Positions 23,629 through 63,673 of a stretch of DNA of 63,673 bases are shown piece after piece; the stretch's first letter is position 1, and the number at the start of each line of letters is the position of its first letter. This DNA comes from Elusimicrobia bacterium LH_S2 (GTDB taxonomy: Bacteria > CG03 > SLGR01 > JAGXOG01), in contig JAGXOG010000001.1 of NCBI GenBank assembly GCA_023660015.1, positions 1-63,673 of the forward strand, written 5' to 3'. The notes under the pieces are model-generated. The model was not told the origin of the DNA. It did not search any database and worked only from the letters and a program-made list of their open reading frames with translations. The translations under genes and the position numbers were made by a program.

Positions 23629-23696
23629 TTGTTAAAAAAGAAGTGATACAAATCAGAGGAAAAAGGAGAAGTGTAGAGTATTTAACTAAATGAGAA

Positions 23697-31229: not shown

Positions 31230-31283
31230 AATTTTATATACCGCAATAAAATAACTAAACAATTATATTGATTAATTTTAAAA

Positions 31284-35826: not shown

Positions 35827-35855
35827 TTGACAATACTTAAGCAGTAAAATATAAT
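35827..35855 (+). promoter_or_regulatory. Consensus sigma70-type promoter (TTGACA-17 nt-TATAAT) upstream of the 5'-nucleotidase gene
   Basis: TTGACA lies at 35827-35832 and TATAAT at 35850-35855, with an exact 17-nt spacer. It sits 20 nt upstream of the ATG at 35876. Confidence 0.55.
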
Positions 35856-37806: not shown

Positions 37807-39645
37807 ATGGGAATTGAATTTTATTGTGGTCTATTGGGACTTTTTGCTATACCTTTTATCGCCTGGCTCATCTCATCTAACCGTTCACGAGTAATGTGGA
37901 AAGTAGTTGTCGGGGGCTTGGTACTCCAGCTTATTTTGGGTGTTTTGGTTCTTCTTACCCGGCCCGGGCAGCTGTTTTTTAAAGGAATGAATGATATAGT
38001 CCTGGGATTACTCAAATTTTCCGATAAAGGAGCACAATTTCTTTTCGGTGATCTAATAAATCATGAATTTGCTGCAGCCAACTTTGCTTTTTCCGTGCTT
38101 CCTACAATAATTTTCTTTTCTGCACTTATGTCTATTTTATATTATACCGGATTTATGCAGAAACTTGTTGAATTTGTCGCCTGGCTAATCATGAAAGTCC
38201 TGGGGACCAGCGGAGCAGAAACACTTTCGGTTAGCGCTAATATATTTGTTGGCCAGACAGAAGCGCCCCTGGTTATAAGGCCTTTTGTAAAAGATATGAC
38301 AATGTCGGAATTAAATACGGTAATGACCGGAGGTTTTGCTACCGTAGCAGGGGGAGTTATGGCTGCTTATGTCGGTATGCTTCATTCTTATTTTCCGGCA
38401 ATAGCTGGTCATCTTATTACCGCCAGTATAATGTCTGCGCCGGCCGCTATTGTAATGTCAAAACTTTCTTTTCCCGAGGAGGATGAGCCTGCTACCCGGG
38501 GAACAGTCGAGGTCAATGTAGAAGAGCGAGATCAGAATTTAATAGGAGCTGCCTCCAGCGGAGCGGCCGCCGGACTTAAACTTGCTCTTAACGTCGGCGC
38601 TATGTTGCTTGCATTCATCGCTATAGTTTATATGGCAAATTTTGCTATAAGCTGGGGCGGTCAACAGTTATACAGCCTTATTACAGAAAGAACGGGCTGG
38701 AGCGCATTTTTAAGCGGTGCCATATTAGGCGCGGCCGTGCTTGCTTTTTATATCGCCCGCTGGGGCTGGAAAGGGAGACGGACAAAGTATTGGATAACAG
38801 CGCTTTTATTGGTAATTTTTCTTCCTGTAGCGGCTTATTATATTCTCCCCGACCTTATGGCTGTACGTTTCGGGCTGGGGAGTCCTTCGGTCTGGGCAGC
38901 CGTAGGAATTGCCGGAGGAATTGTATTGGGAGTAGGCGGTATTTTCCGGTGGTTCAGAAAACTTAAAGCACTCTGGCTTCAGTCCCTCGGAGTTTTACTG
39001 CTTGGAGGAGCGGCTGTAGGAATCTTAACCTTTCTTCTCGGCGGAAGCGGATCAGACAGCGGGGCTGCTTTTTTGCTTTTTGGCGTCTTCGGACTTATAG
39101 TCGCCACAGCGGTATATTGGGTCAATCCTTCCCGGGCTACTGTAATTAAGTCCCTAATAATTGTATTTATAGTTGCCGCCGTCGGTGCGTTAATAACAGC
39201 TCTTTTTAATTTAAATATGCTTGTTGCACTGGAGAACCTCACTCTTCAGAAACTTCTGGGGTTTATATTTTCCGGGCTTGCCCTGCTGATAGGAATACCC
39301 TGGCCGGATTTAATTAATGTAGGGCAGCTTATAGGCGAAAAAGTTGCTGTAAATGAATTTGTGGCATTCTTAACTTTCAAGAATATGGCTTCACAGGGTT
39401 TGCTTAGCGCCCGTAGCCTGGTTATTGTTAGTTATGCTTTATGTGGTTTTTCTAATTTCAGCTCAATTGCAATCCAGATAGGCGGTATAGGTGGAATAGC
39501 TCCCAGCCGTTCCGGAGATTTGGCAAAACTGGGTTTGCGTGCGATGACTGCGGGGGTTCTGGCCTCTGCTCAGACGGCGGCGGTCGCCGGTGTAATGTTC
39601 GCTATAGCCGAGAAAATTGGAATACAACTGGTAACCCTGGGATGA
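37807..39645 (+). CDS. nupC: NupC/CNT-family concentrative nucleoside transporter with a large internal multi-TM insertion
   Basis: N-terminal and Gate regions are present, with GQTEAPL.. and ..LNTVMTGGFATVAGGVMAAYVGML. The C-terminal part has NEFVAF.., YALCGFSNFSSIAIQIGGIGGIAPSR. At 612 aa it is much longer than the roughly 400 aa typical of the family. Confidence 0.85.
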   Translation: MGIEFYCGLLGLFAIPFIAWLISSNRSRVMWKVVVGGLVLQLILGVLVLLTRPGQLFFKGMNDIVLGLLKFSDKGAQFLFGDLINHEFAAANFAFSVLPTIIFFSALMSILYYTGFMQKLVEFVAWLIMKVLGTSGAETLSVSANIFVGQTEAPLVIRPFVKDMTMSELNTVMTGGFATVAGGVMAAYVGMLHSYFPAIAGHLITASIMSAPAAIVMSKLSFPEEDEPATRGTVEVNVEERDQNLIGAASSGAAAGLKLALNVGAMLLAFIAIVYMANFAISWGGQQLYSLITERTGWSAFLSGAILGAAVLAFYIARWGWKGRRTKYWITALLLVIFLPVAAYYILPDLMAVRFGLGSPSVWAAVGIAGGIVLGVGGIFRWFRKLKALWLQSLGVLLLGGAAVGILTFLLGGSGSDSGAAFLLFGVFGLIVATAVYWVNPSRATVIKSLIIVFIVAAVGALITALFNLNMLVALENLTLQKLLGFIFSGLALLIGIPWPDLINVGQLIGEKVAVNEFVAFLTFKNMASQGLLSARSLVIVSYALCGFSNFSSIAIQIGGIGGIAPSRSGDLAKLGLRAMTAGVLASAQTAAVAGVMFAIAEKIGIQLVTLG

Positions 39646-39727: not shown

Positions 39728-40822
39728 ATGATAAGGGAAACAGTTCTTATAATAGCTTTTATAGTACTGGGGGCTGGGTATTTATTTTTTAATCATATAA
39801 AAAGATTGAAAAATCAGAAAAAAAAGCTCCAGTCCGCTATAGATGACTTAAAGCTGCTACAGGGTGTGAGCAAAGAAGTATCTTCAAAGCTGGAGATGTC
39901 TCAGCTTTTGCCTTCTATTATGGAGGCTTTTGTCCGTGCCGGAAATGTTAAAAAAGGTTCTATAATGCTTTATGACAGGGAAAAGGATCTCCTTGAAATA
40001 AAGACCGCTAAAGGGCTTAGCCAGCGGGCTATAGATAATGTGAAACTTCACCTGGGGGAAGGTATAGGTGGGCGGGTAGCTGAAACCGGAGAATCTATTC
40101 TTATAAACGACACTACAAAAAACAGTGTTTATAAGGATTTTTTTTCCGGAGATATGAAAGGCCGTCCCCGGGAGACCCTTCTATGTCTTCCTTTAATGTT
40201 TAAGGGTGAAATCCTGGGGGTGGTTACCCTTGATTCTAAAATATCCGGACAGCAGTTTATAAGAAATGATGAACGCCTGTTGTCTATTCTTGCTTCCCAG
40301 TCCGCGATATCTATCAATAATGCTAGAACGTATGAGTTGGCTATAACCGACGGGCTGACAAAATTATATATAAGGCGTTACTTCTTTAACCGTCTTAATG
40401 AGGAAATTGAAAAATCCAGTAGATACAGACATCCGTTCTCGCTTCTTTTTCTGGATATTGACCATTTTAAAGAGTTTAACGACACCTATGGCCATCAGAT
40501 GGGCGATAAAGCGCTTATACATTTAAGTAAAATTATGATTGATAAAACCAGGACCGTTGATATATGCGCTCGTTACGGAGGAGAAGAATTTATTATCATA
40601 TTGCCGGAAACTCAGAAAGATTCCGGCTTGATTCTTGCCGAAAGATTAAGGAAGAGTATTGAGGTGAGTTCGTTTGTGGGACTGGGGCATGAATATAAAA
40701 TAAGAGTTAGTATAGGCCTGGCAGAATATAGACAAGATATGACTTCAAAAGAACTCATTAAAGAAGCAGACAAAAATCTTTACAAAGCAAAAGAGACCGG
40801 TCGTAACAAGGTCATATCTTGA
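39728..40822 (+). CDS. Membrane-anchored GAF-GGDEF diguanylate cyclase
   Basis: N-terminal TM helix and a GAF-like region. The GGDEF domain carries RYGGEEFIIILP and ..DHFKEFNDTYGHQMGD. Confidence 0.85.
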   Translation: MIRETVLIIAFIVLGAGYLFFNHIKRLKNQKKKLQSAIDDLKLLQGVSKEVSSKLEMSQLLPSIMEAFVRAGNVKKGSIMLYDREKDLLEIKTAKGLSQRAIDNVKLHLGEGIGGRVAETGESILINDTTKNSVYKDFFSGDMKGRPRETLLCLPLMFKGEILGVVTLDSKISGQQFIRNDERLLSILASQSAISINNARTYELAITDGLTKLYIRRYFFNRLNEEIEKSSRYRHPFSLLFLDIDHFKEFNDTYGHQMGDKALIHLSKIMIDKTRTVDICARYGGEEFIIILPETQKDSGLILAERLRKSIEVSSFVGLGHEYKIRVSIGLAEYRQDMTSKELIKEADKNLYKAKETGRNKVIS

Positions 40823-40956
40823 TATAATATTAAACTCTCATTATGATATACGTAAATAGCAGTAAATATTTTCTTTTTCAAAGAAGTAAGCGCATCCTGA
40901 AAAGCAGAAAGAGTTTCTTGCTCAAAAAAATCAGTGGCAAAGGAAGAATAAAATTT

Positions 40957-41210
40957 AGGCATCGTCTCAAAAGTAATGGATATATGAGAAATAGTTTTGC
41001 AAAGAGTTCCTTTTTCTGCTCCGGTTGTTTTTTTGCTTTCAGCACGCAGAAGTCACGCTTGAAACTCAAAAACTCACTCGTCATATTGACGAGTTCAGAG
41101 AGTTTGAGTTCCTTCCTAACGGAACCAGCATGACTTTTGACAGGAGAACAAAGTCGTTCAAAAGAGATTCTTTACATAAAAGCCAATCCATTAACTTTGG
41201 GATAACGTCT
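40957..41210 (+). mobile_element. MITE-like repeat, type A, full-length copy
   Basis: Near-palindromic 254-bp element with termini AGGCATCGTCTC...GGGATAACGTCT and a central hairpin ACTCGTCA-TAT-TGACGAGT. It differs from the copy at 50981-51234 only by scattered substitutions. Confidence 0.8.
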
Positions 41211-41250: not shown

Positions 41251-42153
41251 ATGAGAATAATTAAATATGATGACATAATGTCAGCAAAGAATCAGGGTAG
41301 AAAAAAGGTTGTGGCACATTCCGCAAGTTTAGTATCACCGTATGCGCGGGAAACTGCCCTGAGATTTGGAATAGAGATAGTTGAAAATTTAAGTATTAAA
41401 AGAGAGGAAAATAATATGAGAAAACCTTTTATTGCCGGCAACTGGAAGATGAATAAAACCAACAGAGAGACCGTAAAACTTTTAAATAATTTAAAGCCAT
41501 TGGTTAGTGACGCGGGCGACGTAGATATAATGGTGGCCCCCCCGTATACTTCACTAACCCTGGCCGCTGAGATATTAACAGATAACAATATAATGCTCGG
41601 TGCTCAGAATATGCACCAGGAAGAAAGTAGCGCATATACAGGAGAGATAACAGCTGATATGCTCATTGAGGCCGGCTGTAGTTGGGTCATACTCGGACAT
41701 TCCGAGCGCAGAAAATATTTTGGGTGTAGTGATGAGCTGGTTAATAAAAAATTAAAAAAAGCTCTCAGTAAAGGCCTTAATCCCATAGTCTGCGTCGGCG
41801 AGCAACTGGAGGAGCGTGAGGCCGGAAATACTTTTGAAATCCTCCGCCGGCAGGTTACAGAAGGGCTAAAAGAGATAAATGACCCGGTTACCATAGCTTA
41901 TGAACCTGTATGGGCCATAGGAACAGGGAAGACCGCTTCTCCCGAACAGGCCGATGACGCCCATAAATTTATAAGGGAGATGTTGGCTGATATTTACAAC
42001 CCTGAAATAGCGGAGGATATAAGAATACTCTACGGTGGAAGTGTTAAACCCACAAATATATCCGAGCTTATGGCAAAAAAGAATATTGATGGAGGGCTTA
42101 TAGGCGGGGCAAGCCTAAATGCAGAGAGTTTCTCTCAGATAGTGAAGTTCTAA
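41251..42153 (+). CDS. tpiA: Triosephosphate isomerase with a 55-aa N-terminal extension (alternative internal start at 41416)
   Basis: From residue 56 the sequence is RKPFIAGNWKMN...GHSERR...AYEPVWAIGTG...GGASL, a canonical TPI. An SD-like GAGAGGA lies 7 nt upstream of the internal ATG at 41416. Confidence 0.9.
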   Translation: MRIIKYDDIMSAKNQGRKKVVAHSASLVSPYARETALRFGIEIVENLSIKREENNMRKPFIAGNWKMNKTNRETVKLLNNLKPLVSDAGDVDIMVAPPYTSLTLAAEILTDNNIMLGAQNMHQEESSAYTGEITADMLIEAGCSWVILGHSERRKYFGCSDELVNKKLKKALSKGLNPIVCVGEQLEEREAGNTFEILRRQVTEGLKEINDPVTIAYEPVWAIGTGKTASPEQADDAHKFIREMLADIYNPEIAEDIRILYGGSVKPTNISELMAKKNIDGGLIGGASLNAESFSQIVKF

Positions 42154-42166
42154 GGAAAATACTGAA

Positions 42167-42787
42167 TTGACAGATACCTCACAAATAGCAGGAGAAATAT
42201 TAATAAGGCTCGAGCGTTCATCGAGGCCTATTATATGTAATGTCTCCAACCGGCATATTCATATATCAAAAGATATACTCGAAAAACTTTTTGGTGAAGG
42301 ATATAGTTTAAAAAAAGCCAAGGAGCTTATGCAGCCCGGACAGTATGCATCGACGGCAAAAATTACTCTTAAAGGTCCCAAGGGAACTTTAACCGGAGTA
42401 AGGATTTTAGGCCCGGTAAGAGAAAATACGCAGATTGAGATATCCAGAACTGACTGTTATACACTGGGAATTAATGCTCCGCTGCGAAGTTCCGGAGATT
42501 TGCAGGGAAGTCCCGGAGCAAGGATTATAGGTTCGTCCGGGTCGGCGCAGTTGTCGGAAGGCATAATAGTGGCCCAGAGACATATACATATGACCCCTGC
42601 GGACGCTTCTTTTTTCAAAGTTAAAAATAAGCAGAAAGTAAGGGTAAGAACGAGGCCCCCTCGCTCGGTTGTTTTTGAAGATATGCTGATAAGGGTCAGT
42701 GAAAATTATTGTCTGGAGTGCCATATAGATACCGATGAAGCCAACAGCTGTGATTTTAAAAGTTCAGATGAAGTATTTTTAAGCTGA
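42167..42787 (+). CDS. pduL: Phosphate acyltransferase PduL (BMC-associated phosphotransacylase)
   Basis: It has a duplicated PduL half-domain: NVSNRHIHIS...ILGP.R..TQIEISRTD and AQRHIHMTP...CHIDTDEAN. TTG start. Confidence 0.9.
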   Translation: MTDTSQIAGEILIRLERSSRPIICNVSNRHIHISKDILEKLFGEGYSLKKAKELMQPGQYASTAKITLKGPKGTLTGVRILGPVRENTQIEISRTDCYTLGINAPLRSSGDLQGSPGARIIGSSGSAQLSEGIIVAQRHIHMTPADASFFKVKNKQKVRVRTRPPRSVVFEDMLIRVSENYCLECHIDTDEANSCDFKSSDEVFLS

Positions 42788-42788
42788 T

Positions 42789-43106
42789 ATGTCCTCGATC
42801 GGAATGATAGAAACAAAAGGAATGATTGCGATGGTCGAAGCGGCTGATGCAATGGTGAAATCCGCCGATGTAAAGATTATGGGACAAATAAAAAGATACG
42901 GGGGAGGGTTGGTGACTGTAATTGTGGCCGGAGAGGTTGCCGCCTGCCGGGCCGCCTGTGAAGTAGGCAGTGTCGCTGCCCAAAAAGTCGGAGAGCTTGT
43001 AGCAGTCCATGTTATACCCCGGCCGCATGATGAATTAAGTTCAAAATTATCAGTATTAGAAAAAAATTTTAGGAATTATTCCGGATCTGTCAGATATGAT
43101 AAATAA
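42789..43106 (+). CDS. BMC-H shell protein (Pfam00936 type) with repeat-derived C-terminal tail
   Basis: SIGMIETKGMIAMVEAADAMVKSADVKI...[13 protein letters not shown] is canonical BMC-H. The last 12 or so codons and the stop lie inside the MITE-like element that starts at 43071. Confidence 0.85.
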   Translation: MSSIGMIETKGMIAMVEAADAMVKSADVKIMGQIKRYGGGLVTVIVAGEVAACRAACEVGSVAAQKVGELVAVHVIPRPHDELSSKLSVLEKNFRNYSGSVRYDK

Positions 43107-43303
43107 TTTTGTAAAGAGCAGATTCTTTATCTATAGGTTCTCCTTTTGCCCGCAGGGCTCACAAAAGCTATGCTTAAAACTAAAAATTACTCGTCATAGA
43201 AACGAGTTCAGACAATTTAAATTTTTTCTTCTTAAAGAACCGGCATACTTTTGACAGAAGGACAAAGTTACTCAAAATGCACTCTTTACATGGAACAATG
43301 TTA
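43071..43303 (+). mobile_element. MITE-like repeat, type B copy with partly deleted right arm; flanked by AATTTT
   Basis: It aligns with 30731-31229 minus the nested element. AATTTT lies at 43065-43070 and 43304-43309. It sits between two BMC-H genes. Confidence 0.75.
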
Positions 43304-43329
43304 AATTTTAAGAAAGGAAACAATAACTT

Positions 43330-43596
43330 ATGGAAGCACTCGGACTTATAGAAACCAGAGGCCTTGTCGGGGTAATAGAGGCAGCGGATGTAATGGTAAA
43401 GACCGCGTCTGTAAAGATAGTTGGTTTTGAAAAATCGGGCGATGGTATAGTAACCGTAAAAATCAGGGGCCCGGTGGCAGATTGCCGGGTAGCGGTAGAT
43501 GCGGCTGTATCGGCAGCCGGGAAAGTGTCGGAACTTTTATCAGCGCATCTTATACCATTGCCGTTTCCTGATTTAGAAGAGAACTTAAATATATAA
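43330..43596 (+). CDS. BMC-H shell protein
   Basis: EALGLIETRGLVGVIEAADVMVKTASVKIVG...SAHLIP is a canonical single Pfam00936 domain. Confidence 0.9.
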   Translation: MEALGLIETRGLVGVIEAADVMVKTASVKIVGFEKSGDGIVTVKIRGPVADCRVAVDAAVSAAGKVSELLSAHLIPLPFPDLEENLNI

Positions 43597-43623
43597 AGAG
43601 ACAAAAAAAAGAGGTAATATAAT

Positions 43624-43929
43624 ATGCAATTTGGAATTATAACGGGGAATGTTGTTTGCACCACAAAAGATGAAAAAATAGAAGGAAGAAAATTACTGCT
43701 GGTTCAGCCAGTAAATGATGAGTTTAAACCGGAAGGAACCGGGCTGGTGGGTATAGACTCGGTAGGTGCCGGGGAGGGTGAACTCGTACTTTATGTGACC
43801 GGTTCTTCTTCAAGGATGACCGATATTACCGATAACCGTCCTGTAGACTGCACTATAATGGCTATTGTGGATTATGTCAGCAAGAACGATAAGATAATAT
43901 TTGAAAAGTTTAAAGAAGGTCGGGAGTAA
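43624..43929 (+). CDS. BMC-P pentameric vertex protein (EutN/CcmL family)
   Basis: MQFGIITGNVVCTTKDEKIEGRKLLLVQPV....GIDSVGAGEGELVLYVTGSS is the EutN/CcmL pattern. Confidence 0.9.
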   Translation: MQFGIITGNVVCTTKDEKIEGRKLLLVQPVNDEFKPEGTGLVGIDSVGAGEGELVLYVTGSSSRMTDITDNRPVDCTIMAIVDYVSKNDKIIFEKFKEGRE

Positions 43930-43965
43930 AATAAAAATTTTTAAAACCATAATCGGAGGTATTAA

Positions 43966-45381
43966 ATGGATATAAACAAAGAAGAAGTTTCAAAGATAGT
44001 GCGTGAAGTTGTTTCAAGGCTTGAACAAGACGGGCCTGTCTCTTCGCCGTCCGCCGGTGGGTCGGTATTATATGAAACTATGCCTGAGGCAATTGCGGCG
44101 GCAAAATCTGCTCAGGAAAAATTTAAGGGTATGGGGTTGGAATTACGGCGGAAAGTCATAGAAGCTATGCGGGTAGCAGCAAGGGAGCAGGCCGAGACCC
44201 TGGCTAAATCAGCCGCCGCTGAAACAGGAATGGGCAGGTGGGAAGATAAAATAAAGAAAAATCTTTTGGCTGCCGATAAGACTCCCGGTGTAGAAGACCT
44301 TCAGCCGGTAGCTTATACCGGAGATCGGGGGCTAACACTGATAGAGAATGCTCCTTTCGGAGTTATAGGAGCGGTTGCCCCGTCCACAAATCCAACCTCT
44401 ACTGTTATAAATAATGCAATAAGCATAATTGCGGCGGGAAACGCTGTAGTATTTGCTCCGCATCCGGCGGCGAAAAAATCTTCCCAGGAAGCCATGAAAT
44501 GTCTCTCCGGTGCAATAAAATCAGCCGGCGCTCCAGCAGACCTTATAACCGCTATGAGTGACCCCAGCCTGGAAGGCGCACAGATTTTATTTACAGATGA
44601 AGATATAAAAGTACTTCTGGTTACCGGAGGCCCTGCCGTAGTAGCGGCAGCCATGAAAAGCGATAAAAAGATTATCGCCGCAGGCCCGGGAAATCCTCCT
44701 GTGGTAGTTGATGAAACTGCGAATATTAAAAATACCGTAGATTCAGTTATAGATGGAGCAAGTTTTGATAACGGGGCGCTTTGCACCGCAGAAAAAGAAG
44801 TTCTTCTTACAGACGATGCATATGAAGGGGTGATTACAGAAATGCGGGGAAGAAGCGATGTCTACGAGCTTACTTCCGGACAGATGGATAAACTGGCCGA
44901 TATGGTTATTGCCAAATCGGGCAAGGGGGGGGAAGGTTTGATGAACAAAGACTATGTCGGAAAAGACGCTGTTTTTATTGCCAAAGCAATAGGTTTAAAT
45001 ATCCCCCCGGAGGCACGGCTCTTATGGGGCATTGTAGATAAAGAAAATGATTTTATGTGGACCGAACAGCTTATGCCCGTTCTTCCTTTTGCAAAGACAG
45101 GCACTATAGATGATACGATAGAGCTTGCCGTCCGGATGGAAGGGGGAAACGGCCATACGGCTATTATGCATTCATTAAATGTAGAACATCTTACAACTAT
45201 GGCCAGAAAAGGGGCCTGCTCTATTTTTGTTAAAAACGGGCCGTCTTTTATGGGCCTGGGGATGGGTGAAGGCTACGGCGCTCTCTCTATTGCTACTCCT
45301 ACTGGTGACGGCCTTGTAAAAGCGAGTAATTTTACACGGCCTTTAAGGTGCGTGCTGGTAGATTATTTCAGGATAGCTTAG
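43966..45381 (+). CDS. CoA-acylating aldehyde dehydrogenase (EutE/PduP-like) with N-terminal encapsulation-peptide-like helix
   Basis: The region around the catalytic Cys is FDNGALCTAEKE, on an ALDH fold. The N-terminus EEVSKIVREVVSRLEQ is an amphipathic helix followed by a linker. Confidence 0.9.
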   Translation: MDINKEEVSKIVREVVSRLEQDGPVSSPSAGGSVLYETMPEAIAAAKSAQEKFKGMGLELRRKVIEAMRVAAREQAETLAKSAAAETGMGRWEDKIKKNLLAADKTPGVEDLQPVAYTGDRGLTLIENAPFGVIGAVAPSTNPTSTVINNAISIIAAGNAVVFAPHPAAKKSSQEAMKCLSGAIKSAGAPADLITAMSDPSLEGAQILFTDEDIKVLLVTGGPAVVAAAMKSDKKIIAAGPGNPPVVVDETANIKNTVDSVIDGASFDNGALCTAEKEVLLTDDAYEGVITEMRGRSDVYELTSGQMDKLADMVIAKSGKGGEGLMNKDYVGKDAVFIAKAIGLNIPPEARLLWGIVDKENDFMWTEQLMPVLPFAKTGTIDDTIELAVRMEGGNGHTAIMHSLNVEHLTTMARKGACSIFVKNGPSFMGLGMGEGYGALSIATPTGDGLVKASNFTRPLRCVLVDYFRIA

Positions 45382-46706
45382 TGAACAGGGAAGAGATATT
45401 AAATAAAATAATGGATGCCGGGATAGTCGGTGCCGGCGGAGCGGGTTTTCCGTCACATCTTAAAGTATCGGCTGACGTGGATACAGTAATTGCTAACGGC
45501 GCAGAATGCGAACCTCTGCTTTCTACGGACAAGTACCTTATGGAGACAAAAGCCCGCGAAATAGCCGAAGGGTTAAGGCTGATAAAACAGACTACCGGCG
45601 CGAAAAATCTTTATATTGCATTAAAGAAAAAATATAAAAAAGCTGTAGATGCTTTTAATTCTGTTCTCGGTTCGTCTTCGGATATAGAACTCATACTTCT
45701 TGAAAATTATTATCCGGCCGGCGATGAATTTGAGTTGGTATATGATATTACCGAGAGGCTCATCCCGGAAGGCGGTATTCCCCTTAATGTGGGGGTTGTG
45801 GTCACCAATGTCAATACAATATTAAATATATACTTGGCGGTAACTAAACAGCAACCGGGGACTACCCGCTGGGTTACGGTCGCCGGCAACCTGAAAGAGC
45901 CGTATCTTACCGAAGTCCCGGTTGGAATAAAAATCGGGGAGCTGATAAATAAAGCAAAACCAATTGCCGAAGATTATAAAATAGTAGCCGGGGGCCCGAT
46001 GACCGGAGAGATAGTTGATGAAAATTTCAGGGTGACAAAACTTGACGGCGGGGTGCTTGTCCTTCCTGAAGATAACCCGGTCATAGCTAAAAAGATGAGG
46101 ACTTTGCGGTCCTGGGAAAAGATAGGAAAATCTACCTGTGACCAGTGTTTTGATTGTTCAATTGTCTGCCCCCGGAATCTTTTAGGCCATGACCTGGAGC
46201 CGCACAAGATGATGAGGAATCTTTTTATAGATCCTGAAAATTCGCCGGTAGAGATAACAAATTCATATCTCTGCAGCAACTGCGGCCTCTGTGACATGTT
46301 TGCCTGTCCTTTAGGTCTTTCTCCCCGGGCGCTGCTTCAGCAGGCAGCGGCCGAACTTACACAGGATGGGATAAATTCGCCCCATAACCGGACAGAATTA
46401 GAGCCCCATCCGGAAAGAGATTTCAGAAGGGTAAGCACAGACAGGCTCACTGCCCGGCTGGATATAGAAAAGTATGAGATAAACGGAGATTACAGAATTA
46501 AAAAGATAAAAACTTCCAAAGTTATGATACCTTTAAAACAGCATATAGGAGCGCCGGCCGCCGCTGTAGTTAAAAAAGGAGATAAAGTTAAAAAGGGGGA
46601 TCTTATAGCTTCTGTACCTGAAAAAGAAATAGGGGCAAACATACATGCAAGTATTGACGGAACAGTAGCCGGGATAAGAAATGAAAATATTGAAATTAAA
46701 GGATAG
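45381..46706 (+). CDS. PduS/RnfC-like flavo-iron-sulfur protein (two 4Fe-4S motifs, C-terminal RnfC-type barrel-sandwich domain)
   Basis: It contains GIVGAGGAGFPSHLKV, CDQCFDCSIVCP and CSNCGLCDMFACP. A GTG at 45381 overlaps the upstream TAG (TAGTG) with AGGA 7 nt upstream; the track ORF opens at 45348. Confidence 0.8.
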   Translation: MNREEILNKIMDAGIVGAGGAGFPSHLKVSADVDTVIANGAECEPLLSTDKYLMETKAREIAEGLRLIKQTTGAKNLYIALKKKYKKAVDAFNSVLGSSSDIELILLENYYPAGDEFELVYDITERLIPEGGIPLNVGVVVTNVNTILNIYLAVTKQQPGTTRWVTVAGNLKEPYLTEVPVGIKIGELINKAKPIAEDYKIVAGGPMTGEIVDENFRVTKLDGGVLVLPEDNPVIAKKMRTLRSWEKIGKSTCDQCFDCSIVCPRNLLGHDLEPHKMMRNLFIDPENSPVEITNSYLCSNCGLCDMFACPLGLSPRALLQQAAAELTQDGINSPHNRTELEPHPERDFRRVSTDRLTARLDIEKYEINGDYRIKKIKTSKVMIPLKQHIGAPAAAVVKKGDKVKKGDLIASVPEKEIGANIHASIDGTVAGIRNENIEIKG

Positions 46707-46715
46707 GTGATATAG

Positions 46716-47267
46716 ATGAAAAATGCAATTGGTTTAATTGAGTTAAACAGCATAGCCAAAGGTTTTGAAATCACGGATGCTCTTTTAAAGACAGCCGAAA
46801 GCCGGTTGGTGGAAGCTCATTCGGTCTGCCCGGGTAAATTTATCGTTCTTATTACCGGGACTACGGCCGATGTGCAAAGTTCGCTGCAGTCCGGGTTGGA
46901 TATTGCCGCCGATGCTTTTATTGATAAACTTATGATACCTAATATTCACCAGGATTTGGTATCGGCATTAAGAGGGATTACGGCAGTTTCCGAACTGGAA
47001 GCCCTGGGCATTATAGAAACATTTTCTGCGGCTTCGGCCATAATCGCAGCCGACGCGGCGGCAAAAAAAGCTATGGTTAAACTTATTGATATACGGCTGG
47101 CTAATGCTTTGGGAGGCAAAGCTTATCTTACCTTGACCGGGGAAGTAGGAGCAGTTCGCTCGGCGGTAAATGCAGGCAGCAACGCGGTAAAAGTTGCCGA
47201 AGGTATATTAATACGGCGAATTGTTATACCGCGCCCTCACAAGGATTTAAGAAAGAGCGTACTTTAG
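46716..47267 (+). CDS. BMC-T tandem-domain shell protein, PduT-like (Cys38 conserved)
   Basis: There are two Pfam00936-like halves (AIGLIELNSIAKG... and ALGIIETFSAASA...) in 183 aa. A Cys at residue 38 (HSVCPGKF, codon 46827-46829) occupies the position of the PduT 4Fe-4S ligand. Confidence 0.8.
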   Translation: MKNAIGLIELNSIAKGFEITDALLKTAESRLVEAHSVCPGKFIVLITGTTADVQSSLQSGLDIAADAFIDKLMIPNIHQDLVSALRGITAVSELEALGIIETFSAASAIIAADAAAKKAMVKLIDIRLANALGGKAYLTLTGEVGAVRSAVNAGSNAVKVAEGILIRRIVIPRPHKDLRKSVL

Positions 47268-47278
47268 GGAGAAAGATT

Positions 47279-47728
47279 ATGGATATTGTAATTGGTTCAG
47301 ATCACGGCGGCTTTAAATTAAAAGAAGAGATAAAAATATATCTTCAGGATAGAGGGTATAACATTGTTGATTTCGGCACTTATGAGGAAGAATCCTGCGA
47401 TTATCCCGATTATGCGCTTTTAGTAGCCCAAGCTATATTGGACGGGGAATATAAAAAAGGTATTTTATTTGACGGTACCGGGGGAGGAGTATGTCTTACT
47501 GCTAATAAAGTTAAGGGGGTGCGGGCGGTAACTGCTTACAACCGCTTGACCGGAAGCTATGCCTCCGAGCATGATGACTGTAATGTCTTATGTCTGGGAG
47601 GAAAGATGCTCGGGGAACTTGTCGCCAGGGATATAGTCGATGCCTGGTTGGATACTCCGTTCGGCGAGGGGCGCCACCAGAGAAGATTAAATAAGGTGGA
47701 GGATGTGGAAGAGAAATATTTTAAGTAA
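47279..47728 (+). CDS. RpiB/LacA/LacB-family sugar-phosphate isomerase, variant with Asp at the catalytic Cys position
   Basis: IGSDHGGFKLK...GILFDGTGGGVCLTANKVKGVRAV...GEGRHQRRL. The codon at 47471-47473 is GAC, where RpiB normally has the Cys of the ICGTG motif. Confidence 0.8.
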   Translation: MDIVIGSDHGGFKLKEEIKIYLQDRGYNIVDFGTYEEESCDYPDYALLVAQAILDGEYKKGILFDGTGGGVCLTANKVKGVRAVTAYNRLTGSYASEHDDCNVLCLGGKMLGELVARDIVDAWLDTPFGEGRHQRRLNKVEDVEEKYFK

Positions 47729-47789
47729 ACAACGATGAATAGAACTACAGTACCGGCGACATTATTATCTTAGTCTGCTTGTTATGAGG

Positions 47790-47810
47790 TGCCGGCATTT
47801 CCTGCCGGCA
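47790..47810 (+). other. Perfect 8-bp stem hairpin (TGCCGGCA-TTTCC-TGCCGGCA) in the spacer between the two rpiB paralogs
   Basis: It is read directly from the sequence. The stem is GC-rich, sits in an AT-rich 130-nt spacer and has no following U-run. Confidence 0.5.
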
Positions 47811-47858
47811 AATCTGAGAATAAATATTGTCAGTACTGTTTCTACGGAGAATTTTTAG

Positions 47859-48302
47859 ATGAAAATTGCAATTGGGTCAGATCACAGAGGATTTCAATTA
47901 AAAAGAGGACTTAAAAATTTGCTCAATAAGATAGGGCATGAGACAGAAGATATGGGGCCGGATACGGAGGATTCCGTAGATTATCCCATATATGCTAAAA
48001 AAGTCGCCGACAGCGTCTCGTCGGGAAAAACCGTCAAAGGGATAGTTATATGCGGAAGCGGTATCGGGGCATCTATAGCTTCAAATAAAGTTAAAGGTAT
48101 AAGGGCAACTCTTTCCCGCTCTATAAATGATGCTCAAATGGGAGTAAGGCATAATAATGCAAATATTCTTTGCCTGGGAGCGGATGTAACTTCCGGAAAA
48201 AAAGCCGCAAAGATAGTAAGAGAATTTTTAAAAGCAGAATTTGAAGGCGGTAGGCATCAAAGGAGAGTAGATATTATTACTAAAATAGAGGAAGGAAGAT
48301 GA
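47859..48302 (+). CDS. rpiB: Ribose-5-phosphate isomerase B (canonical Cys-type RpiB)
   Basis: IGSDHRGFQLK...GIVICGSGIGASIASNKVKGIRA...EGGRHQRRV. Confidence 0.85.
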   Translation: MKIAIGSDHRGFQLKRGLKNLLNKIGHETEDMGPDTEDSVDYPIYAKKVADSVSSGKTVKGIVICGSGIGASIASNKVKGIRATLSRSINDAQMGVRHNNANILCLGADVTSGKKAAKIVREFLKAEFEGGRHQRRVDIITKIEEGR

Positions 48303-48604
48303 AAGCGGCAAAAGTAGTCGGACGGGTTACGGCCACAACAAAGTATAAAACAATGGAAGGTAAAAAAATCCTTCTTTTAAGACCTCTATCTTGGAGAGAA
48401 GCCGCTCAGGCCTTCCGTTTAAAAGGTAAAGACCTTGCGCCGGAACCCAAAAAATCAATTATCGCTCTTGACTCGGTAGGGGCGGGAGCTTCGGAATATA
48501 TTTTTTATGTTTCTTCAAAAGAAGCTTGCCAGGCTTTTGACAATGACGCTATATGTAATTATGCTGTAATCGGGATACTTGACGGGGTGGATATAAAAGA
48601 GTGA
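48299..48604 (+). CDS. BMC-P pentameric vertex protein (EutN/CcmL family), paralog 2
   Basis: MKAAKVVGRVTATTKYKTMEGKKILLLRPL...ALDSVGAGASEYIFYVSS. The start overlaps the rpiB stop (ATGA). Confidence 0.85.
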   Translation: MKAAKVVGRVTATTKYKTMEGKKILLLRPLSWREAAQAFRLKGKDLAPEPKKSIIALDSVGAGASEYIFYVSSKEACQAFDNDAICNYAVIGILDGVDIKE

Positions 48605-48748
48605 GATAACCATGAATTATTACCAGCAGAAAAGAATTAAAATTAAATCTGTCGGCAGCATTTGTTTTCTCATTCTCGCTACGCTCCGAGGTCGCAAACA
48701 GCTGAATCCGGAGATGAATACCGTCGGTATATTTGGGAGCATTTGTAG

Positions 48749-49042
48749 ATGAAAGTTGCAAAAGTCATAGGTAATGCCTGGGCTACCAGAAAACATCCGA
48801 TTTTAGAGTCAAAAAAACTTTTAATAGTTGAGCCGGTAGACGAAACTACCGCCGTGCCCAACGGGGAACCCTTATTGGCCATTGATTCGGCCGGTGCAGG
48901 TGTGGGGGATACCGTACTGGTGCTGGACGAAGGGACCTCGTGCAGGCAGATAGTGGGTGTGGACCATGCTCCGACCCGGACTATAATAATCGGGATTGTA
49001 GATGAAACTTATAAAAAAGGCAAAAAGAGAAGTTATCATTAA
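48749..49042 (+). CDS. BMC-P pentameric vertex protein (EutN/CcmL family), paralog 3
   Basis: [30 protein letters not shown]...[19 protein letters not shown]. Confidence 0.85.
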
Positions 49043-49065
49043 TTAATAAAAATAAGGAGGAAAAA

Positions 49066-50472
49066 GTGCAGGAGAGTTATATAAAAAAAATTACTGCAGA
49101 AACAATGAACCGTCTGGAGAGTAAAAGAGGGGGTAAACGGGAACTCCTTTTGATATTTATGGGTGGAGACCGCGAAGTTGACGAATCGCTAAACCAGGTA
49201 AAATGTTTAAACGAAATGGGAATAAAATTTTCTGCTTACCTGACCGGTTCCGCTGACCGTATAATCGGCCGCAGCAGAGTTATGGCTGCCGGGGTAGAGA
49301 GAGTAATTGATGAAAGCGAAATATGGGACCGGGGGATACTTGACAAGTATGAAGCCATTATAATTCCGGTTTTGACCTTAAACGGAACGTCTAAGATAGC
49401 CAATATGGTAGCCGATAATCCTGCAAGTAACATAATCCTGCTTGCTTTAAGGCACGAGAAAAAGGTAATTATAGCCCGGGACTCGGTTATAAGCGGCGGA
49501 GGACCACAGCCGCCGGCTACCTCCGCGTTTATGAGAAATGTCAATGAGATGATAAATAAGATTAAAAATTTAGGAGCGACGGTAACAGTGGCTAAAAATT
49601 TAGCCCGACGGATTACGGAAGTATTAAATATATCTGCCCGGCCGGTTTCCGGAAACGCGGTCTCTGTAAACTCTTCGCCTCCTGCAGAAATGCCATGCGG
49701 GGGGGATGTATCTGCATGTGTTGAATGCGGTTTATGTGTGGTAAACCGCACTGAAGATGTTAAGAATATAGTTAATGCCGGGGCAAGTCGAGTATCTGCA
49801 AAGCAGGTAACGGAGGATATAGGAAATGATTTGGCCAAATATATAGATCATACGGATCTTAAGGCTGAGACTACCACAGAAGCTATAGGAAAACTTTGCG
49901 AAGAGGCAAAAGAATATCACTTTGCAACTGTCTGTGTAAATCCGGTTAACGTAAAGACCGCGGCCCAGCTTTTAAAAGGCAGCGGTGTCAGGGTCACTAC
50001 TGTTATAGGTTTCCCGCTGGGGGCCACTACTCCCACGGTAAAAGCATTGGAGGCAAGAGATGCAATAGCCAACGGTGCTGATGAGATAGATATGGTAATA
50101 AATGTCGGAGCCTTAAAAGGCGGAAATTACCGCCTGGTCGAGGACGATATAAAAGCCGTTCGGGAAGCTACAAGGGGTAAAGTCCTTAAAGTAATTTTAG
50201 AGACCTCTCTTTTAGATAACGACCAGATAGTGAAGGATTGTCAGATTTCAAAATCCGCAGGTGCTGATTTTGTTAAAACTTCTACGGGATTCGGTCCCGG
50301 TGGTGCAACCGAAGAAGATGTAAGCTTAATGAGAAAAACAGTAGGTCCGTCCATGGGGGTTAAAGCGGCGGGAGGCATACATTCGGAAGAAGAGGCCGAA
50401 GGCATGGTTAAGGCCGGGGCTTCCCGCATAGGCGCGTCGGCTTCGGTAGCCATAGTTACCGGCGGCGAATAG
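49066..50472 (+). CDS. deoC: Fusion protein: encapsulation-peptide-like helix + flavoprotein-like domain + CxxCxxC motif + deoxyribose-phosphate aldolase (DERA/DeoC)
   Basis: The C-terminal 230 aa or so read DHTDLK...ATVCVNP...IGFPLG...IDMVINVG...LKVILET...[10 protein letters not shown]...VKAAGGI, which is canonical DeoC. The N-terminus has [21 protein letters not shown] (flavoprotein-family-like) and [16 protein letters not shown]. Confidence 0.85.
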
Positions 50473-50550
50473 GAGAGCAATTATTAATAGGTATTTTTAG
50501 TTTATCGGAAATTTGGTAAAGATTGTAAAGAAGTATAAGGAGGAATAAAA

Positions 50551-50838
50551 ATGGCAGAAGCTAAACAAGCTTTAGGTATGATTGAAACTATAGGTCTTGT
50601 AGGTATGATTGAAGCCTCGGATGCTATGGTTAAGGCAGCAAAGGTTGACCTGGCCGGTTATGAGAAAATAGGCCAGGGTTATGTAACGACGATGGTTAGA
50701 GGTGAAGTAGGGGCAGTTAGGGCCGCGGTCGAGGCGGGTTCTACCGCAGCGCAAAAAGTCGGCGAATTAGTCAGCGTTCACGTGATTCCCAGGCCTCACG
50801 AAGATATAGAAAGTATTCTCCCTCAGGGTAACAAATAA
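50551..50838 (+). CDS. BMC-H shell protein (strong AAGGAGG RBS; likely the major shell hexamer)
   Basis: [28 protein letters not shown]...[14 protein letters not shown]. An AAGGAGG lies 7 nt upstream of the ATG. Confidence 0.9.
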
Positions 50839-50919: not shown

Positions 50920-50980
50920 ATATCTATGCGTTAATTTATTGATAAGATTCCAATACTGTGTTATTTATTAATTGATAGTT

Positions 50981-51234
50981 TGGTATCGTACCAAAAATAA
51001 TGGATATATGAAAAATAGTTTTGCAAAGAGTCCCTTTTTTTACTCCGGTTGTTCTTTTGCTTTCAGCACGCAGAAGTCACGCTTGAAACTCAAAAACTTA
51101 CTCGTCATATTAACGAGCTCAAAGAATTTGAGTTCCTTCATAGCGGAACCAGCATGACTTTTGACAGGAGAACAAAGTTGTTCAAAAGAAACTCTTTGCA
51201 TAAAAGCCAGCCTATTAACTTTGGGACAACGTCA
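50981..51234 (+). mobile_element. MITE-like repeat, type A, full-length copy flanked by 6-bp direct repeat ATAGTT
   Basis: It aligns end to end with 40957-41210. ATAGTT lies at 50975-50980 and 51235-51240. Confidence 0.8.
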
Positions 51235-51250
51235 ATAGTTAAAAAGGTTT

Positions 51251-51550
51251 ATGTTAAATAAGGGTATTTTAAAGTTAACAGCCGATACTTTTGTGGATAT
51301 TATCAGCGAAAGAAATATTTCGCCGAAAATTTTGGATAATAAAAGTTATAAATCCGGTTTTTTTCTGCAAAAACCGTTTTCAGTAAACCGCACAACATTA
51401 AAAAACCGCAAAAAACTTATAACCGAAAGATATTTGTTAGACCTTATTGCCGAGGGAAGAAAAAGGGTAAGTTTTAATACCGATGTAATAATTACTCCGG
51501 CGGCAAGGTTAATTATTGAGGAAGGAAAAATAAAGATAGATGAACAATAG
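51251..51550 (+). CDS. Small hypothetical protein; C-terminal motif shared with the TPI N-terminal extension
   Basis: ORF from the track. RKRVSFNTDVIITPAARLIIEEGKIKIDE resembles RKKVVAHSASLVSPYARETALRFGIEIVE in the tpiA extension. It overlaps the next gene by 11 nt. Confidence 0.5.
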   Translation: MLNKGILKLTADTFVDIISERNISPKILDNKSYKSGFFLQKPFSVNRTTLKNRKKLITERYLLDLIAEGRKRVSFNTDVIITPAARLIIEEGKIKIDEQ

Positions 51551-53191: not shown

Positions 53192-53192
53192 T

Positions 53193-55199: not shown

Positions 55200-55203
55200 A
55201 ATT

Positions 55204-62977: not shown

Positions 62978-63673
62978 ATGACTACTGACAGCAGATTAAA
63001 AACAGCGTCCGATAAAGTATCAGAAATTATAGAAGAACAACCCGAAATAGGTTTAATATTCGGAAGCGGCCTCGGTTCGCTTGCCGACGAATTTGAAAAT
63101 CTAAAGAAAAAAAGTTTTAAGGATATACCTGATTTCCCCGAATCTACCGTTGAAGGCCACAAAGGGGAATATGTTTTCGGCAAGTTAAACGGAGTCAACG
63201 TTCTGGCTCTTTCGGGGCGGATACATTATTACGAAGGCCATACTATACAGGAGGTCTGTTTTCCTCTAAAAGTTATGGCCGAATGCGGAATTAAAAAACT
63301 CATAGTCAGCAACGCCGGAGGCGGCGTAAATGAAAAATTTACCCCTGGAGATATCGTTATAATAAAAGATCACATAAATTTTATGGGTAACAATCCACTC
63401 ATAGGCGCAGCGGATTTTATAGATATGACCGACGCTTACAACAGCGAGCTCAGAAAGATTGCTGCTGCTGTGGGAAAAAAGCAGAGTATAGATTTAAAAA
63501 GAGGGGTCTATATGGCAAACAGCGGCCCTTCGTATGAGACCCCGGCAGAAATAAGAATGGCCAGAACTATAGGGGCCGATATAGTGGGCATGTCCACTGT
63601 CCCGGAAGTTATTATGGCCAATAAATACGGTATTAAAGTCCTTGGGTTTTCCATGATTACAAATATGGCCGCA
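62978..63673 (+). CDS. punA: Purine nucleoside phosphorylase (PunA/PNP-MTAP family), 3'-truncated by the window edge
   Basis: This ORF is not in the ORF track because no stop is reached. From the ATG at 62978 it reads MTTDSRLKTASDKVSEIIEEQPEIGLIFGSGLGSLAD...EGHKGEYVFGKLNGVNVLALSGRIHYYEGH...SNAGGGVN...GPSYETPAE...GADIVGMSTVPE. Confidence 0.85.
   Translation, partial: MTTDSRLKTASDKVSEIIEEQPEIGLIFGSGLGSLADEFENLKKKSFKDIPDFPESTVEGHKGEYVFGKLNGVNVLALSGRIHYYEGHTIQEVCFPLKVMAECGIKKLIVSNAGGGVNEKFTPGDIVIIKDHINFMGNNPLIGAADFIDMTDAYNSELRKIAAAVGKKQSIDLKRGVYMANSGPSYETPAEIRMARTIGADIVGMSTVPEVIMANKYGIKVLGFSMITNMAA

Follow-up and report, generated by a model that had tools for sequence, protein, structure and literature searches.

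A probable SPU1-type microcompartment at the core of a putative nucleoside-scavenging operon in an uncultured Elusimicrobiota bacterium

What might a bacterial microcompartment (BMC) accomplish whose shell genes are interleaved with those for a sugar-phosphate aldolase and an acylating aldehyde dehydrogenase, and in which direction would its chemistry run? This question is raised by a locus at positions 41251–50838 (+) of contig JAGXOG010000001.1 from Elusimicrobia bacterium LH_S2 (assembly GCA_023660015.1); the window analyzed here is the stretch of 63,673 nt (positions 1–63,673) that contains it. An initial annotation of the window had assigned the locus to the sugar-phosphate utilization (SPU) metabolosomes, and our analysis supports this assignment, since gene content, gene order, and nearest relatives match subtype SPU1 of Elusimicrobia. 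We consider it likely that, in this uncultured member of the Elusimicrobiota, the SPU1-type metabolosome handles the aldehyde at the core of an operon for nucleoside scavenging and serves an oxidative catabolic route, where substrate, direction, and the set of encapsulated proteins are what we infer for this organism.

SPU loci were first defined by Axen et al. 2014, and Sutter et al. 2021 (PMC8217296) distinguished seven subtypes of them; these loci combine shell genes with a DeoC-type deoxyribose-phosphate aldolase (DERA), an acylating aldehyde dehydrogenase (AldDH), an RpiB-type ribose-5-phosphate isomerase (RPI), and a BMC-P triplet (PMC8217296, PMC11585597). SPU1, known from Elusimicrobia only (62 loci; Sutter et al. 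2021, PMC8217296, Supplementary Data 2), has DERA and RPI beside two BMC-P genes, an AldDH, a phosphotransacylase (PTAC), and a triose-phosphate isomerase (TPI), encapsulation peptides (EPs) on AldDH and some PTACs, DERA N-terminal extensions unlike EPs, and a PduT-type BMC-T with a pore cysteine adjoining PduS (PMC8217296). PTAC and TPI mark SPU1, SPU4, and SPU7, and those subtypes are devoid of BMC-T(dp) (Dwyer et al. 2024, PMC11585597). In the locus studied here, both shell folds are clustered within 9.6 kb (3 BMC-H, 1 tandem BMC-T, and 3 BMC-P; PF00936, PF03319), PTAC, TPI, and PduS/PduT are present, and BMC-T(dp) is absent. The BMC-P triplet matches SPU in number and layout, leaving aside the color clades of the catalog: BMC-P 2 and BMC-P 3 are neighbors (144-nt gap) beside RPI and DERA, and BMC-P 1 is set apart. 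The closest DERA and shell homologs belong to metagenome-assembled genomes named Elusimicrobia or Elusimicrobiota, among them locus L082 from GCA_016934855.1, and HGW-Elusimicrobia-1, whose main locus is labeled SPU1 in the catalog tree files, carries the same DERA fusion over its full length at 52% identity. No characterized rival BMC class was found to fit. Content, motifs, taxonomy, and the catalog-labeled relative thus support typing the locus as SPU1, i.e., as a probable new example of an already cataloged organelle type. A peculiarity of its layout are two unique inserts, 47729–47858 between RpiB1 and RpiB2 (130 nt) and 48605–48748 between BMC-P 2 and BMC-P 3 (144 nt), which have no repeat match elsewhere in the window; in the closest relative, L081, both gene pairs overlap by 4 nt.

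The inventory given in the initial annotation was borne out by Pfam and NCBIfam, which recovered all 14 genes of 41251–50838 (+) at exactly the coordinates listed there (Table 1). All 14 reading frames lie on the + strand and are intact, family scores are strong, with E-values of 1e-17 to 1e-97 that exclude chance matches, and motif inspection found the catalytic motifs preserved in every enzyme. Family searches also agreed with the annotation in that no B12-dependent or glycyl-radical enzyme is encoded within the locus. Intergenic gaps measure 0–40 nt, save three of 130–223 nt, one of which contains a copy of a repeat element. The N-terminal helix of the PduL-type PTAC is amphipathic (by hydrophobic moment, it ranks among the top 1% of windows) and represents a candidate EP; AldDH, examined for the same feature, combines its catalytic Cys motif with an N-terminal amphipathic helix (EVSKIVREVVSRLEQ; among the top 0.4% of windows by the same measure) and may likewise be tagged for encapsulation. 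The PduS homolog displays the GAGGAGFP (FMN/NADH) motif and two CxxCxxCx3-4CP motifs for 4Fe-4S clusters; its true start is probably near 45381, and the ortholog in L081 comprises 441 aa. The BMC-T gene follows at a distance of 9 nt and bears CPGK, a form of the CP(G/S)K motif that is universal among the BMC-T proteins of the module consisting of the NADH dehydrogenase MNdh and BMC-T(SE) (PMC11626177), so that a PduS homolog beside a CP(G/S)K-bearing BMC-T, as characteristic of this module, is found here. BMC-H 3 is the best-conserved shell protein, with 88–98% identity in relatives.

To our knowledge, studies have yet to address an SPU1 protein or a native SPU organelle, and SPU6 of GWB2_54_36 is the only SPU system with biochemical data. 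To this extent, the notion in the initial annotation that SPU chemistry had not been demonstrated still holds, namely for the native organelle and for SPU1 proteins. It does not hold for the SPU6 DERA, which Dwyer, Sutter and Kerfeld 2024 (PMC11585597) purified without its extension and found to cleave deoxyribose-5-phosphate (dR5P), nor for PduS/PduT (PMC11626177). The former study also demonstrated an SPU6 DERA–RPI complex in vitro and negligible ribose-5-phosphate isomerase activity of the SPU6 RPI, in which Cys66 is replaced with Asp (PMC11585597). PduS/PduT was described as an NADH dehydrogenase plus electron conduit that recycles NAD+ (Sutter et al. 2024, PMC11626177): PduS and the adjacent PduT pass electrons outward via three Fe-S clusters, and MNdh/BMC-T transfer has been shown in vitro for Clostridium botulinum (PMC11626177).

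For the DERA fusion, the initial annotation had named loss of the catalytic Lys residues as an observation that would speak against its assignment, yet these residues are in place. In an alignment of 50 full-length homologs, D342, K375, K404, and K433 are invariant; K404 is the Schiff-base Lys within the VKTSTG motif, and K433 aligns with K184 of B. halodurans BH1352 (Leu in mutant 6MSW). The AlphaFold model of the barrel superimposes by Foldseek on S. suis DERA (5DBU) with a TM score of 0.96 and a root mean square deviation of 1.1 Å at 66% identity. By all these marks, the fusion is predicted to be a competent deoxyribose-phosphate aldolase.

The protein is composed of a helix (residues 3–21), a predicted HFCD/flavoprotein-fold domain (25–186), a disordered linker, a 4-Cys motif (C211-x6-C218-x2-C221-x2-C224, each Cys at least 90% conserved in the 50 homologs), and the TIM barrel (256–466), in agreement with Pfam matches to DeoC (residues 257–457) and, weakly, to Flavoprotein (41–137). 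AlphaFold models of the full protein and of residues 1–235 gave pLDDT values >90 in both domains. Foldseek searches with the whole model matched DERAs only, and the separate model of residues 1–235 was used for the N-terminal domain; it matched the homo-oligomeric flavoproteins EpiD, UbiX, TvaF, and DmrB with E-values of about 2e-8 and TM scores of 0.6–0.7. Proteins of the HFCD fold assemble into trimers and dodecamers. PF02441 scored 27–29 bits (28.6) on this domain, above the cut-off of 22.7. A phmmer search against the PDB returned nothing significant (best real family match: dipicolinate synthase B, E = 0.17), so the fold assignment rests on Pfam and Foldseek. By visual inspection, the FMN-motif positions Gly-Ser-Ile-Ala and PAMN of HFCD proteins read GGDR and ARDS here. 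We therefore propose an HFCD fold for the N-terminal domain on the basis of the model, and claim neither family membership nor flavin binding. In MNdh loci, PF02441 domains are also encountered as free proteins, for which a possible role as electron acceptors has been noted (PMC11626177); the main text of Dwyer et al. (PMC11585597) mentions neither a flavoprotein domain nor a Cys motif on DERA.

An N-terminal extension, here of ~255 aa, is found on BMC-associated DERA and is missing from free DERAs, a pattern that becomes evident in a survey of 26 related Elusimicrobiota genomes (14 of high quality, 21 at least 85% complete), a small set of related organisms from which the comparisons below are drawn. 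Intact DERA frames comprise 353–485 aa in 15 shell-bearing relatives versus 231–250 aa in two shell-less ones. Shell-bearing relatives of the same order have proteins of 457–485 aa with the whole module; those of family f8 have proteins of 353–365 aa with an EP-like helix, a linker, and the 4-Cys motif, devoid of the flavoprotein domain; and the shell-less proteins of 231–250 aa have no extension. From this distribution, it appears that the helix and the 4-Cys motif track the shell and that the flavoprotein fold is a lineage-specific insert.

The same survey helps to separate organelle components from housekeeping functions. Exactly one TPI match was detected in 25 of the 26 genomes, in shell-bearing ones on the same contig and directly before the BMC genes, and RpiA was not found in any of the 26. 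In most of the shell-bearing genomes searched, the RpiB genes number exactly two and form a tandem inside the locus (in two incomplete genomes none was found), and five shell-less genomes have exactly one, which in the four inspected belongs to the same operon, beside TPI and DERA. The tandem pair consists of an Asp-type and a Cys-type protein, and the single copy of the inspected shell-less genomes is always of the Cys type. RpiB1 has Asp at the Cys66 position, as in 12 other SPU loci and as described for SPU RPIs; it was found in shell-bearing relatives only. The Cys-type RpiB2 falls outside the published statement on "all SPU RPIs". Based on these TPI, RpiA, and RpiB counts and on the catalytic-residue typing, it is very probable that the cell has no TPI besides that of the locus and probable that RpiB2 is its sole ribose-5-phosphate isomerase, and RpiB1 is, as judged from its sequence and distribution, an SPU-specific paralog. 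The "two RpiB and TPI" of the initial annotation are thus indeed present, but not as equivalent parts: TPI is single-copy, RpiB2 is kept without a shell, and RpiB1 tracks the shell. A deviating pair occurs in L086 (G019:C8, 9286–9762, +), where the second RpiB has Gly (GIVIGGSGNG) at the position of the catalytic Cys, the first having Asp; this 93% complete genome (G019) yielded neither an RpiA nor any canonical ribose-5-phosphate isomerase.

The relatives either possess shell, AldDH, PduS, Asp-type RpiB, long DERA, and TPI extension, or have none of these and keep TPI, Cys-type RpiB, and short DERA. In G011 and G012, the operon encodes a 5'-nucleotidase, TPI, RpiB (Cys), short DERA, an FTCD_C protein, a DnaA-like protein, a kinase, a receiver, and transketolase; shell, AldDH, PduS, PduL, and Asp-type RpiB were not found in it. 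G005 has the same gene set but retains PduL. G007 (97% complete; L089, G007:C68, 4788–5926, –) has kept PduL as well and harbors a 23-residue BMC-H fragment exactly at the position of BMC-H 3; of its DERA extension, only the final helix of the N-terminal domain and the 4-Cys motif are left, and its TPI extension is degenerate. In this relative, the organelle has apparently decayed. Because the absences are scattered within shell-bearing families and one remnant is visible, repeated loss of the shell is the simplest reading.

The locus occupies the central part of a longer nucleoside-catabolism block encoded on one strand (Table 1). Upstream, a perfect sigma-70-type promoter match (TTGACA-17-TATAAT) at 35827–35855 precedes the 5'-nucleotidase as the first gene after it, followed by the CNT-family transporter, which is found at the same position in G002 (74% identity) and is replaced with an ABC-type permease pair in L082, and by the GAF-GGDEF gene, which also directly precedes the BMC genes in L082, L085, and L088. 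Downstream, transketolase takes the same position in L082, L085, L087, and L089, and the phosphopentomutase, named by family, size, and context, stands in the same gene order in L082. Phosphopentomutase converts (deoxy)ribose-1-phosphate to (deoxy)ribose-5-phosphate. The order of the nucleoside genes recurs in relatives whose DERA is 52–87% identical (L081, L082, L085, L093, L094). These surroundings are the strongest contextual support for a catabolic reading in which DNA debris is used, because the flanking genes supply every step from external nucleotide to dR5P. Acetate kinase is encoded elsewhere in the genome (contig C53). An iron-type alcohol dehydrogenase was not found in the 67%-complete draft genome, which fits NAD+ recycling by MNdh.

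Table 1. Features of the window and the satellite shell gene of the same genome (positions refer to the window unless a contig is named).
Feature	Position	Strand	Assignment and motifs
5'-nucleotidase, N-terminal signal/anchor peptide MKYFKRLLLLLGIIGIAAGS	35876..37429	+	5_nucleotid_C 143 bits; Metallophos
CNT-family nucleoside transporter	37807..39645	+	Nucleos_tra2_C 224 bits; Nucleos_tra2_N; Gate
GAF-GGDEF protein (putative diguanylate cyclase)	39728..40822	+	GGDEF 158 bits; GAF_2
255-nt MITE-like repeat, upstream of BMC core	40955..41209		90% identical to 50979–51233
TPI	41251..42153	+	Pfam TIM 323 bits, residues 59–299; K/H/E catalytic motifs
PduL-type phosphotransacylase	42167..42787	+	PTAC 248 bits; PRK15070 257 bits (cut-off 209); two RHIH motifs
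BMC-H 1	42789..43106	+	Pfam BMC 82 bits; interface motifs KSAD / IPRPH
BMC-H 2	43330..43596	+	Pfam BMC 84 bits; unusual interface motifs KTAS / IPLPF
BMC-P 1 (pentamer/vertex)	43624..43929	+	Pfam EutN_CcmL 94 bits
CoA-acylating AldDH, EutE-like	43966..45381	+	Pfam Aldedh; PRK15398 576 bits (cut-off 403); catalytic Cys in GALCTAEK
PduS homolog (MNdh)	45348..46706	+	Complex1_51K 147 bits; Fer4_17; C-terminal RnfC_N
Tandem-domain BMC-T, PduT / BMC-T(SE) type, 183 aa	46716..47267	+	two BMC domains, 140 bits; CPGK residues 38–41
RpiB1 (Asp type)	47279..47728	+	LacAB_rpiB 175 bits; GILFDGTG
RpiB2 (Cys type)	47859..48302	+	LacAB_rpiB 180 bits; GIVICGSG
BMC-P 2	48299..48604	+	Pfam EutN_CcmL 62 bits
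BMC-P 3	48749..49042	+	Pfam EutN_CcmL 89 bits
DERA fusion, 468 aa	49066..50472	+	TIGR00126 284 bits (cut-off 117); DeoC and Flavoprotein (Pfam)
BMC-H 3	50551..50838	+	Pfam BMC 99.5 bits; canonical KAAK / IPRPH
255-nt MITE-like repeat, downstream of BMC core	50979..51233		90% identical to 40955–41209
99-aa protein	51251..51550	+	no Pfam match; shell-bearing loci only
Transketolase	58036..60072	+	Transketolase_N; Transket_pyr; Transketolase_C
Adenine deaminase	60072..61775	+	Adenine_deam_C 219 bits; Amidohydro_1
Phosphopentomutase (DeoB-like), 391 aa	61775..62950	+	Metalloenzyme 136 bits, full length
Nucleoside phosphorylase (PNP/UDP family), cut by window end	62978..63673	+	PNP_UDP_1 164 bits
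Further repeat copies	43094–43291 (BMC-H1/BMC-H2 gap, partial); 31009–31231; 24140–24233; 23581–23633		
Satellite shell gene, 312 aa, three tandem PF00936 domains	L084, own genome, contig C51, 679–1617	+	183 bits, three stretches

According to the mechanism that we propose, an exported 5'-nucleotidase would dephosphorylate external nucleotides, the resulting nucleosides would be imported by the CNT transporter, and nucleoside phosphorylase plus phosphopentomutase would yield dR5P, with the base being salvaged by adenine deaminase. dR5P would then enter a shell built from the three BMC-H, the three BMC-P, and the BMC-T proteins and the satellite triple-domain tile. Inside, tagged DERA would cleave it to glyceraldehyde-3-phosphate (G3P) and acetaldehyde, tagged AldDH would convert the toxic acetaldehyde, trapped in the shell, to acetyl-CoA, and tagged PduL would regenerate CoA and release acetyl-phosphate, from which acetate kinase could make ATP. 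PduS (MNdh) would re-oxidize NADH, with electrons leaving via an Fe-S cluster at the CPGK pore of BMC-T, and G3P would be taken on by TPI. Ribose-5-phosphate derived from ribonucleosides would be handled in the cytosol by Cys-type RpiB2 and transketolase, and Asp-type RpiB1 would most likely assist in building the cargo core, as a partner of DERA without catalytic function.

Several observations weigh against this proposal or against the SPU1 assignment on which it builds. The predicted N-terminal helix of DERA is only moderately amphipathic by hydrophobic moment. Shell-less relatives operate DERA without an operon-encoded AldDH, which means that encapsulation is not obligatory for the pathway. 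No role has been assigned to RPIs of the RpiB1 type even in the tested SPU6 system. Further, SPU1 loci have a BMC-H pair with complementary interface motifs, KAAK/PRPH and KAA(N/D)/PQPH (PMC8217296), and the motifs found here fit partly: KAAK/PRPH in BMC-H 3, KSAD/PRPH in BMC-H 1, and KTAS/PLPF in BMC-H 2. A second BMC-T(s) without pore cysteine, as expected for SPU1, was not found in the 67%-complete genome or in same-family relatives; G002, a 100% complete genome of the same family, has 8 BMC-domain matches as well, the same count as here. As a general caveat, absences in a genome of 67% completeness are weak evidence.

Both the DERA and the acylating AldDH reactions are reversible, and the organelle could in principle be run backward, with AldDH reducing acetyl-CoA and DERA, together with RPI, condensing the aldehyde with G3P to a sugar phosphate for storage, as a sink for NADH and aldehyde. 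Such a model has been put forward for Atribacteria and their SPU loci (Nobu et al. 2016, as cited in PMC6281690), and the failure to find an alcohol dehydrogenase in the locus or the draft genome would be in line with it. However, the flanking genes (5'-nucleotidase, transporter, phosphorylase, phosphopentomutase) deliver dR5P and none consumes it, PduS/MNdh oxidizes NADH (PMC11626177), which is the opposite of what a reductive AldDH needs, and PduL with acetate kinase fits ATP gain from acetyl-CoA; we thus regard reversed operation as very unlikely. Unlikely, if to a somewhat lesser degree, is the idea that the organelle handles another sugar phosphate. The Asp- and Cys-type RpiB proteins would then form a LacA/LacB-like hetero-oligomer that isomerizes a rare sugar phosphate in the shell, the aldolase would cleave the product, and dR5P would be a side substrate. 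The conserved tandem Asp/Cys pair of BMC-bearing relatives recalls LacA and LacB, which have Asp and Cys, respectively, at that position, a parallel raised in PMC11585597; moreover, RpiB enzymes are promiscuous (PMC4207490), and RPI has no obvious role in dR5P chemistry (PMC11585597). Yet retention of the Cys-type RpiB by shell-less relatives, combined with the lack of RpiA matches in the 26 genomes, is explained by housekeeping need, and in G019 the second RpiB of the pair has Gly instead of Cys. The aldolase itself scores as a deoC equivalog (284 bits versus a cut-off of 117) with the full catalytic set, and the genes around it are for nucleosides, not for other sugars.

Loss of the shell in relatives, with a BMC fragment of 23 residues and a shortened DERA extension still visible in G007, and the insertion of repeat elements between genes of the locus might suggest that we are looking at a decaying or non-assembling remnant whose enzymes are free in the cytosol. 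Given 14 of 14 intact frames with catalytic and interface motifs present, a set of 8 BMC domains that is likewise kept by each of three other genomes from the family (one is 100% complete), and a BMC-H 3 that is 88–98% identical to its orthologs, we consider decay extremely unlikely. Oxidative dR5P catabolism in a functional SPU1-type organelle remains the reading that we prefer.

Three modules of this system that are conserved and undescribed add to the picture: the 4-Cys/HFCD module of DERA, an ITPLAR motif, and a triple-domain shell tile. The second of these lies in a 55-aa N-terminal extension of TPI (motif SPYARETALRFGIEI); the frame is open from 41251, and the canonical Met lies 55 codons further on. 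Shell-bearing relatives from across the phylum (G002, G010, G017, G019, L082, and L002) conserve the extension (YDDIMSA...VSPYARETALRFGIEI) at the protein level; it is absent in shell-less G005, G011, G012, and G014 and degenerate in G007. Since the internal ATG at 41416 is preceded by a Shine-Dalgarno sequence (AGAGAGGA) and the first ATG at 41251 by none, it is plausible that two TPI forms are made, a short cytosolic and a long organelle-directed one. A related sequence forms the C-terminus of the 99-aa protein encoded behind the BMC genes, whose IITPAARxxIEEG motif is common to the TPI extension (IITP(L/A)AR...EG); blastp ties the protein to the TPI extension of L093 (E = 4e-4). Orthologs of the 99-aa protein are present in L081–L083, L085, L086, L092, and L093, and none was found in shell-less L087–L090. 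Neither the TPI extension nor the 99-aa protein matched Pfam at E-values up to 1.

The satellite shell gene is the only other BMC-domain gene in the genome. Its three domains carry the motifs PRPH, KTAD/PQPH (domain 2), and KTAN/ARPH, and orthologs of 290–328 aa form ~35 sequence clusters, mostly named Elusimicrobia, and occur in 9 of 25 related genomes. The catalog distinguishes six shell classes, and the three-domain form is not among them (PMC8217296); a description of triple-domain BMC proteins was not found in the literature searched. Two satellite chains, amounting to six domains, could assemble into a dimeric pseudohexamer.

A bolder interpretation would be that the organelle was grafted onto the sole tpiA-rpiB-deoC operon of these bacteria, being lost in some relatives, and acquired two undescribed targeting or redox elements; we grant it a small probability. 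If true, a ~40-aa IITPLAR..GIEI module would be shared by TPI and a small shell-linked protein, and use of both TPI starts would draw part of this central enzyme of glycolysis into the organelle. Likewise, the HFCD domain and 4-Cys center on a cofactor-free aldolase could bind flavin or Fe-S and so couple DERA activity or cargo assembly to the MNdh/BMC-T conduit. If a dimer-forming triple-domain tile is added to these features, the SPU1 organelle of this order would depart in its mechanism from the published SPU scheme.

A family of repeats resembling miniature inverted-repeat transposable elements (MITE-like, ~255 nt) fills intergenic gaps of the window, with one copy on either side of the BMC core (Table 1). 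Two open reading frames, 40843–41133 (96 aa) and 51049–51261 (70 aa), lie within repeats, have no family match, and were rejected as genes. The flanking copies might be taken as the borders of a recently mobilized cassette; we rejected this idea because the repeat family also occupies other intergenic gaps and because the BMC genes likewise sit between the GGDEF and 99-aa genes in relatives without these repeats.

As to the remainder of the window, the BMC genes are followed by a conserved block (51540–57948) for an FTCD_C protein, an acidic 351-aa protein, a 668-aa DnaA-ATPase-like protein that lacks the C-terminal domain of DnaA, a GAF histidine kinase, and two receivers; the FTCD_C and DnaA-like genes remain with the operon even in shell-less L087–L090. 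At the other end, a giant open reading frame of 4398 aa (118–13314, +) contains two PLD-like domains (PLDc_2, 133 bits), lamin-tail domains, and an Ig domain. It could encode a surface or secreted nuclease or phospholipase of the PLD family, and, if a nuclease, would feed nucleotide scavenging.

SPU organelles are among the most widespread metabolosome types, and the locus leaves the type itself unchanged. What it contributes is a complete route from nucleoside to acetyl-phosphate encoded on a single strand, a finding that supports the proposal that debris of DNA and RNA is used. In addition, shell-bearing and shell-less relatives offer a natural comparison that assigns shell, AldDH, MNdh, Asp-type RPI, the DERA and TPI extensions, and the 99-aa protein to the organelle, and TPI, Cys-type RpiB, and the DERA barrel to pathway or housekeeping functions. 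The conserved, unannotated modules of DERA and TPI are candidate cargo-loading or redox elements for BMC engineering.

Compared with cataloged SPU1 loci, the one described here shares host phylum, PTAC/TPI/AldDH, the BMC-P triplet, a PduT-type BMC-T beside PduS, and the lack of BMC-T(dp), as well as (candidate) EPs on AldDH and PTAC and a DERA extension "that does not resemble an EP", resolved here as helix, predicted HFCD fold, and 4-Cys motif. It differs in that its main locus has a single BMC-T where two are described, with a satellite triple-BMC-domain protein present instead, in that its BMC-H interface motifs agree only partly, and in an additional Cys-type RpiB. A conserved TPI extension is present in this SPU1 locus, whereas Dwyer et al. 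report one for SPU4 only (PMC11585597). SPU6 of Chloroflexi bacterium GWB2_54_36 has in common with it the Asp/Lys/Lys set and an N-terminal extension of DERA, the Cys66-to-Asp replacement in RPI, AldDH as second core enzyme, and the BMC-P triplet. On the other hand, SPU6 is devoid of PduS/PduT, PTAC, and TPI but has BMC-T(dp), the reverse of what is seen here; its DERA extension measures ~70 aa versus ~255 aa, and its RPI has an EP of its own with a 75-aa linker, whereas RpiB1 has no extension and starts 12 nt after the previous gene. With the MNdh/BMC-T(SE) module (PMC11626177), the locus shares a PduS with FMN/NADH motif, two 4Fe-4S motifs, and RnfC_N barrel upstream of a CPGK-bearing BMC-T, and AldDH is present and alcohol dehydrogenase absent in both; in SPU, the function of the module is a predicted one. 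The difference is an extra flavoprotein-fold domain plus 4-Cys motif on the signature aldolase itself. Finally, the deo operon of E. coli and Bacillus (deoC, deoA/deoD, deoB) comprises the same steps, catalyzed by nucleoside phosphorylase, phosphopentomutase, and DERA, and the shell-less relatives G005, G011, and G012 have essentially this deo pathway without a compartment. Unlike the cytosolic deo operon, the locus would enclose the acetaldehyde branch (AldDH, PduL, and NADH dehydrogenase) in a shell, and it also carries what is probably the cell's only TPI together with the Cys-type RpiB.

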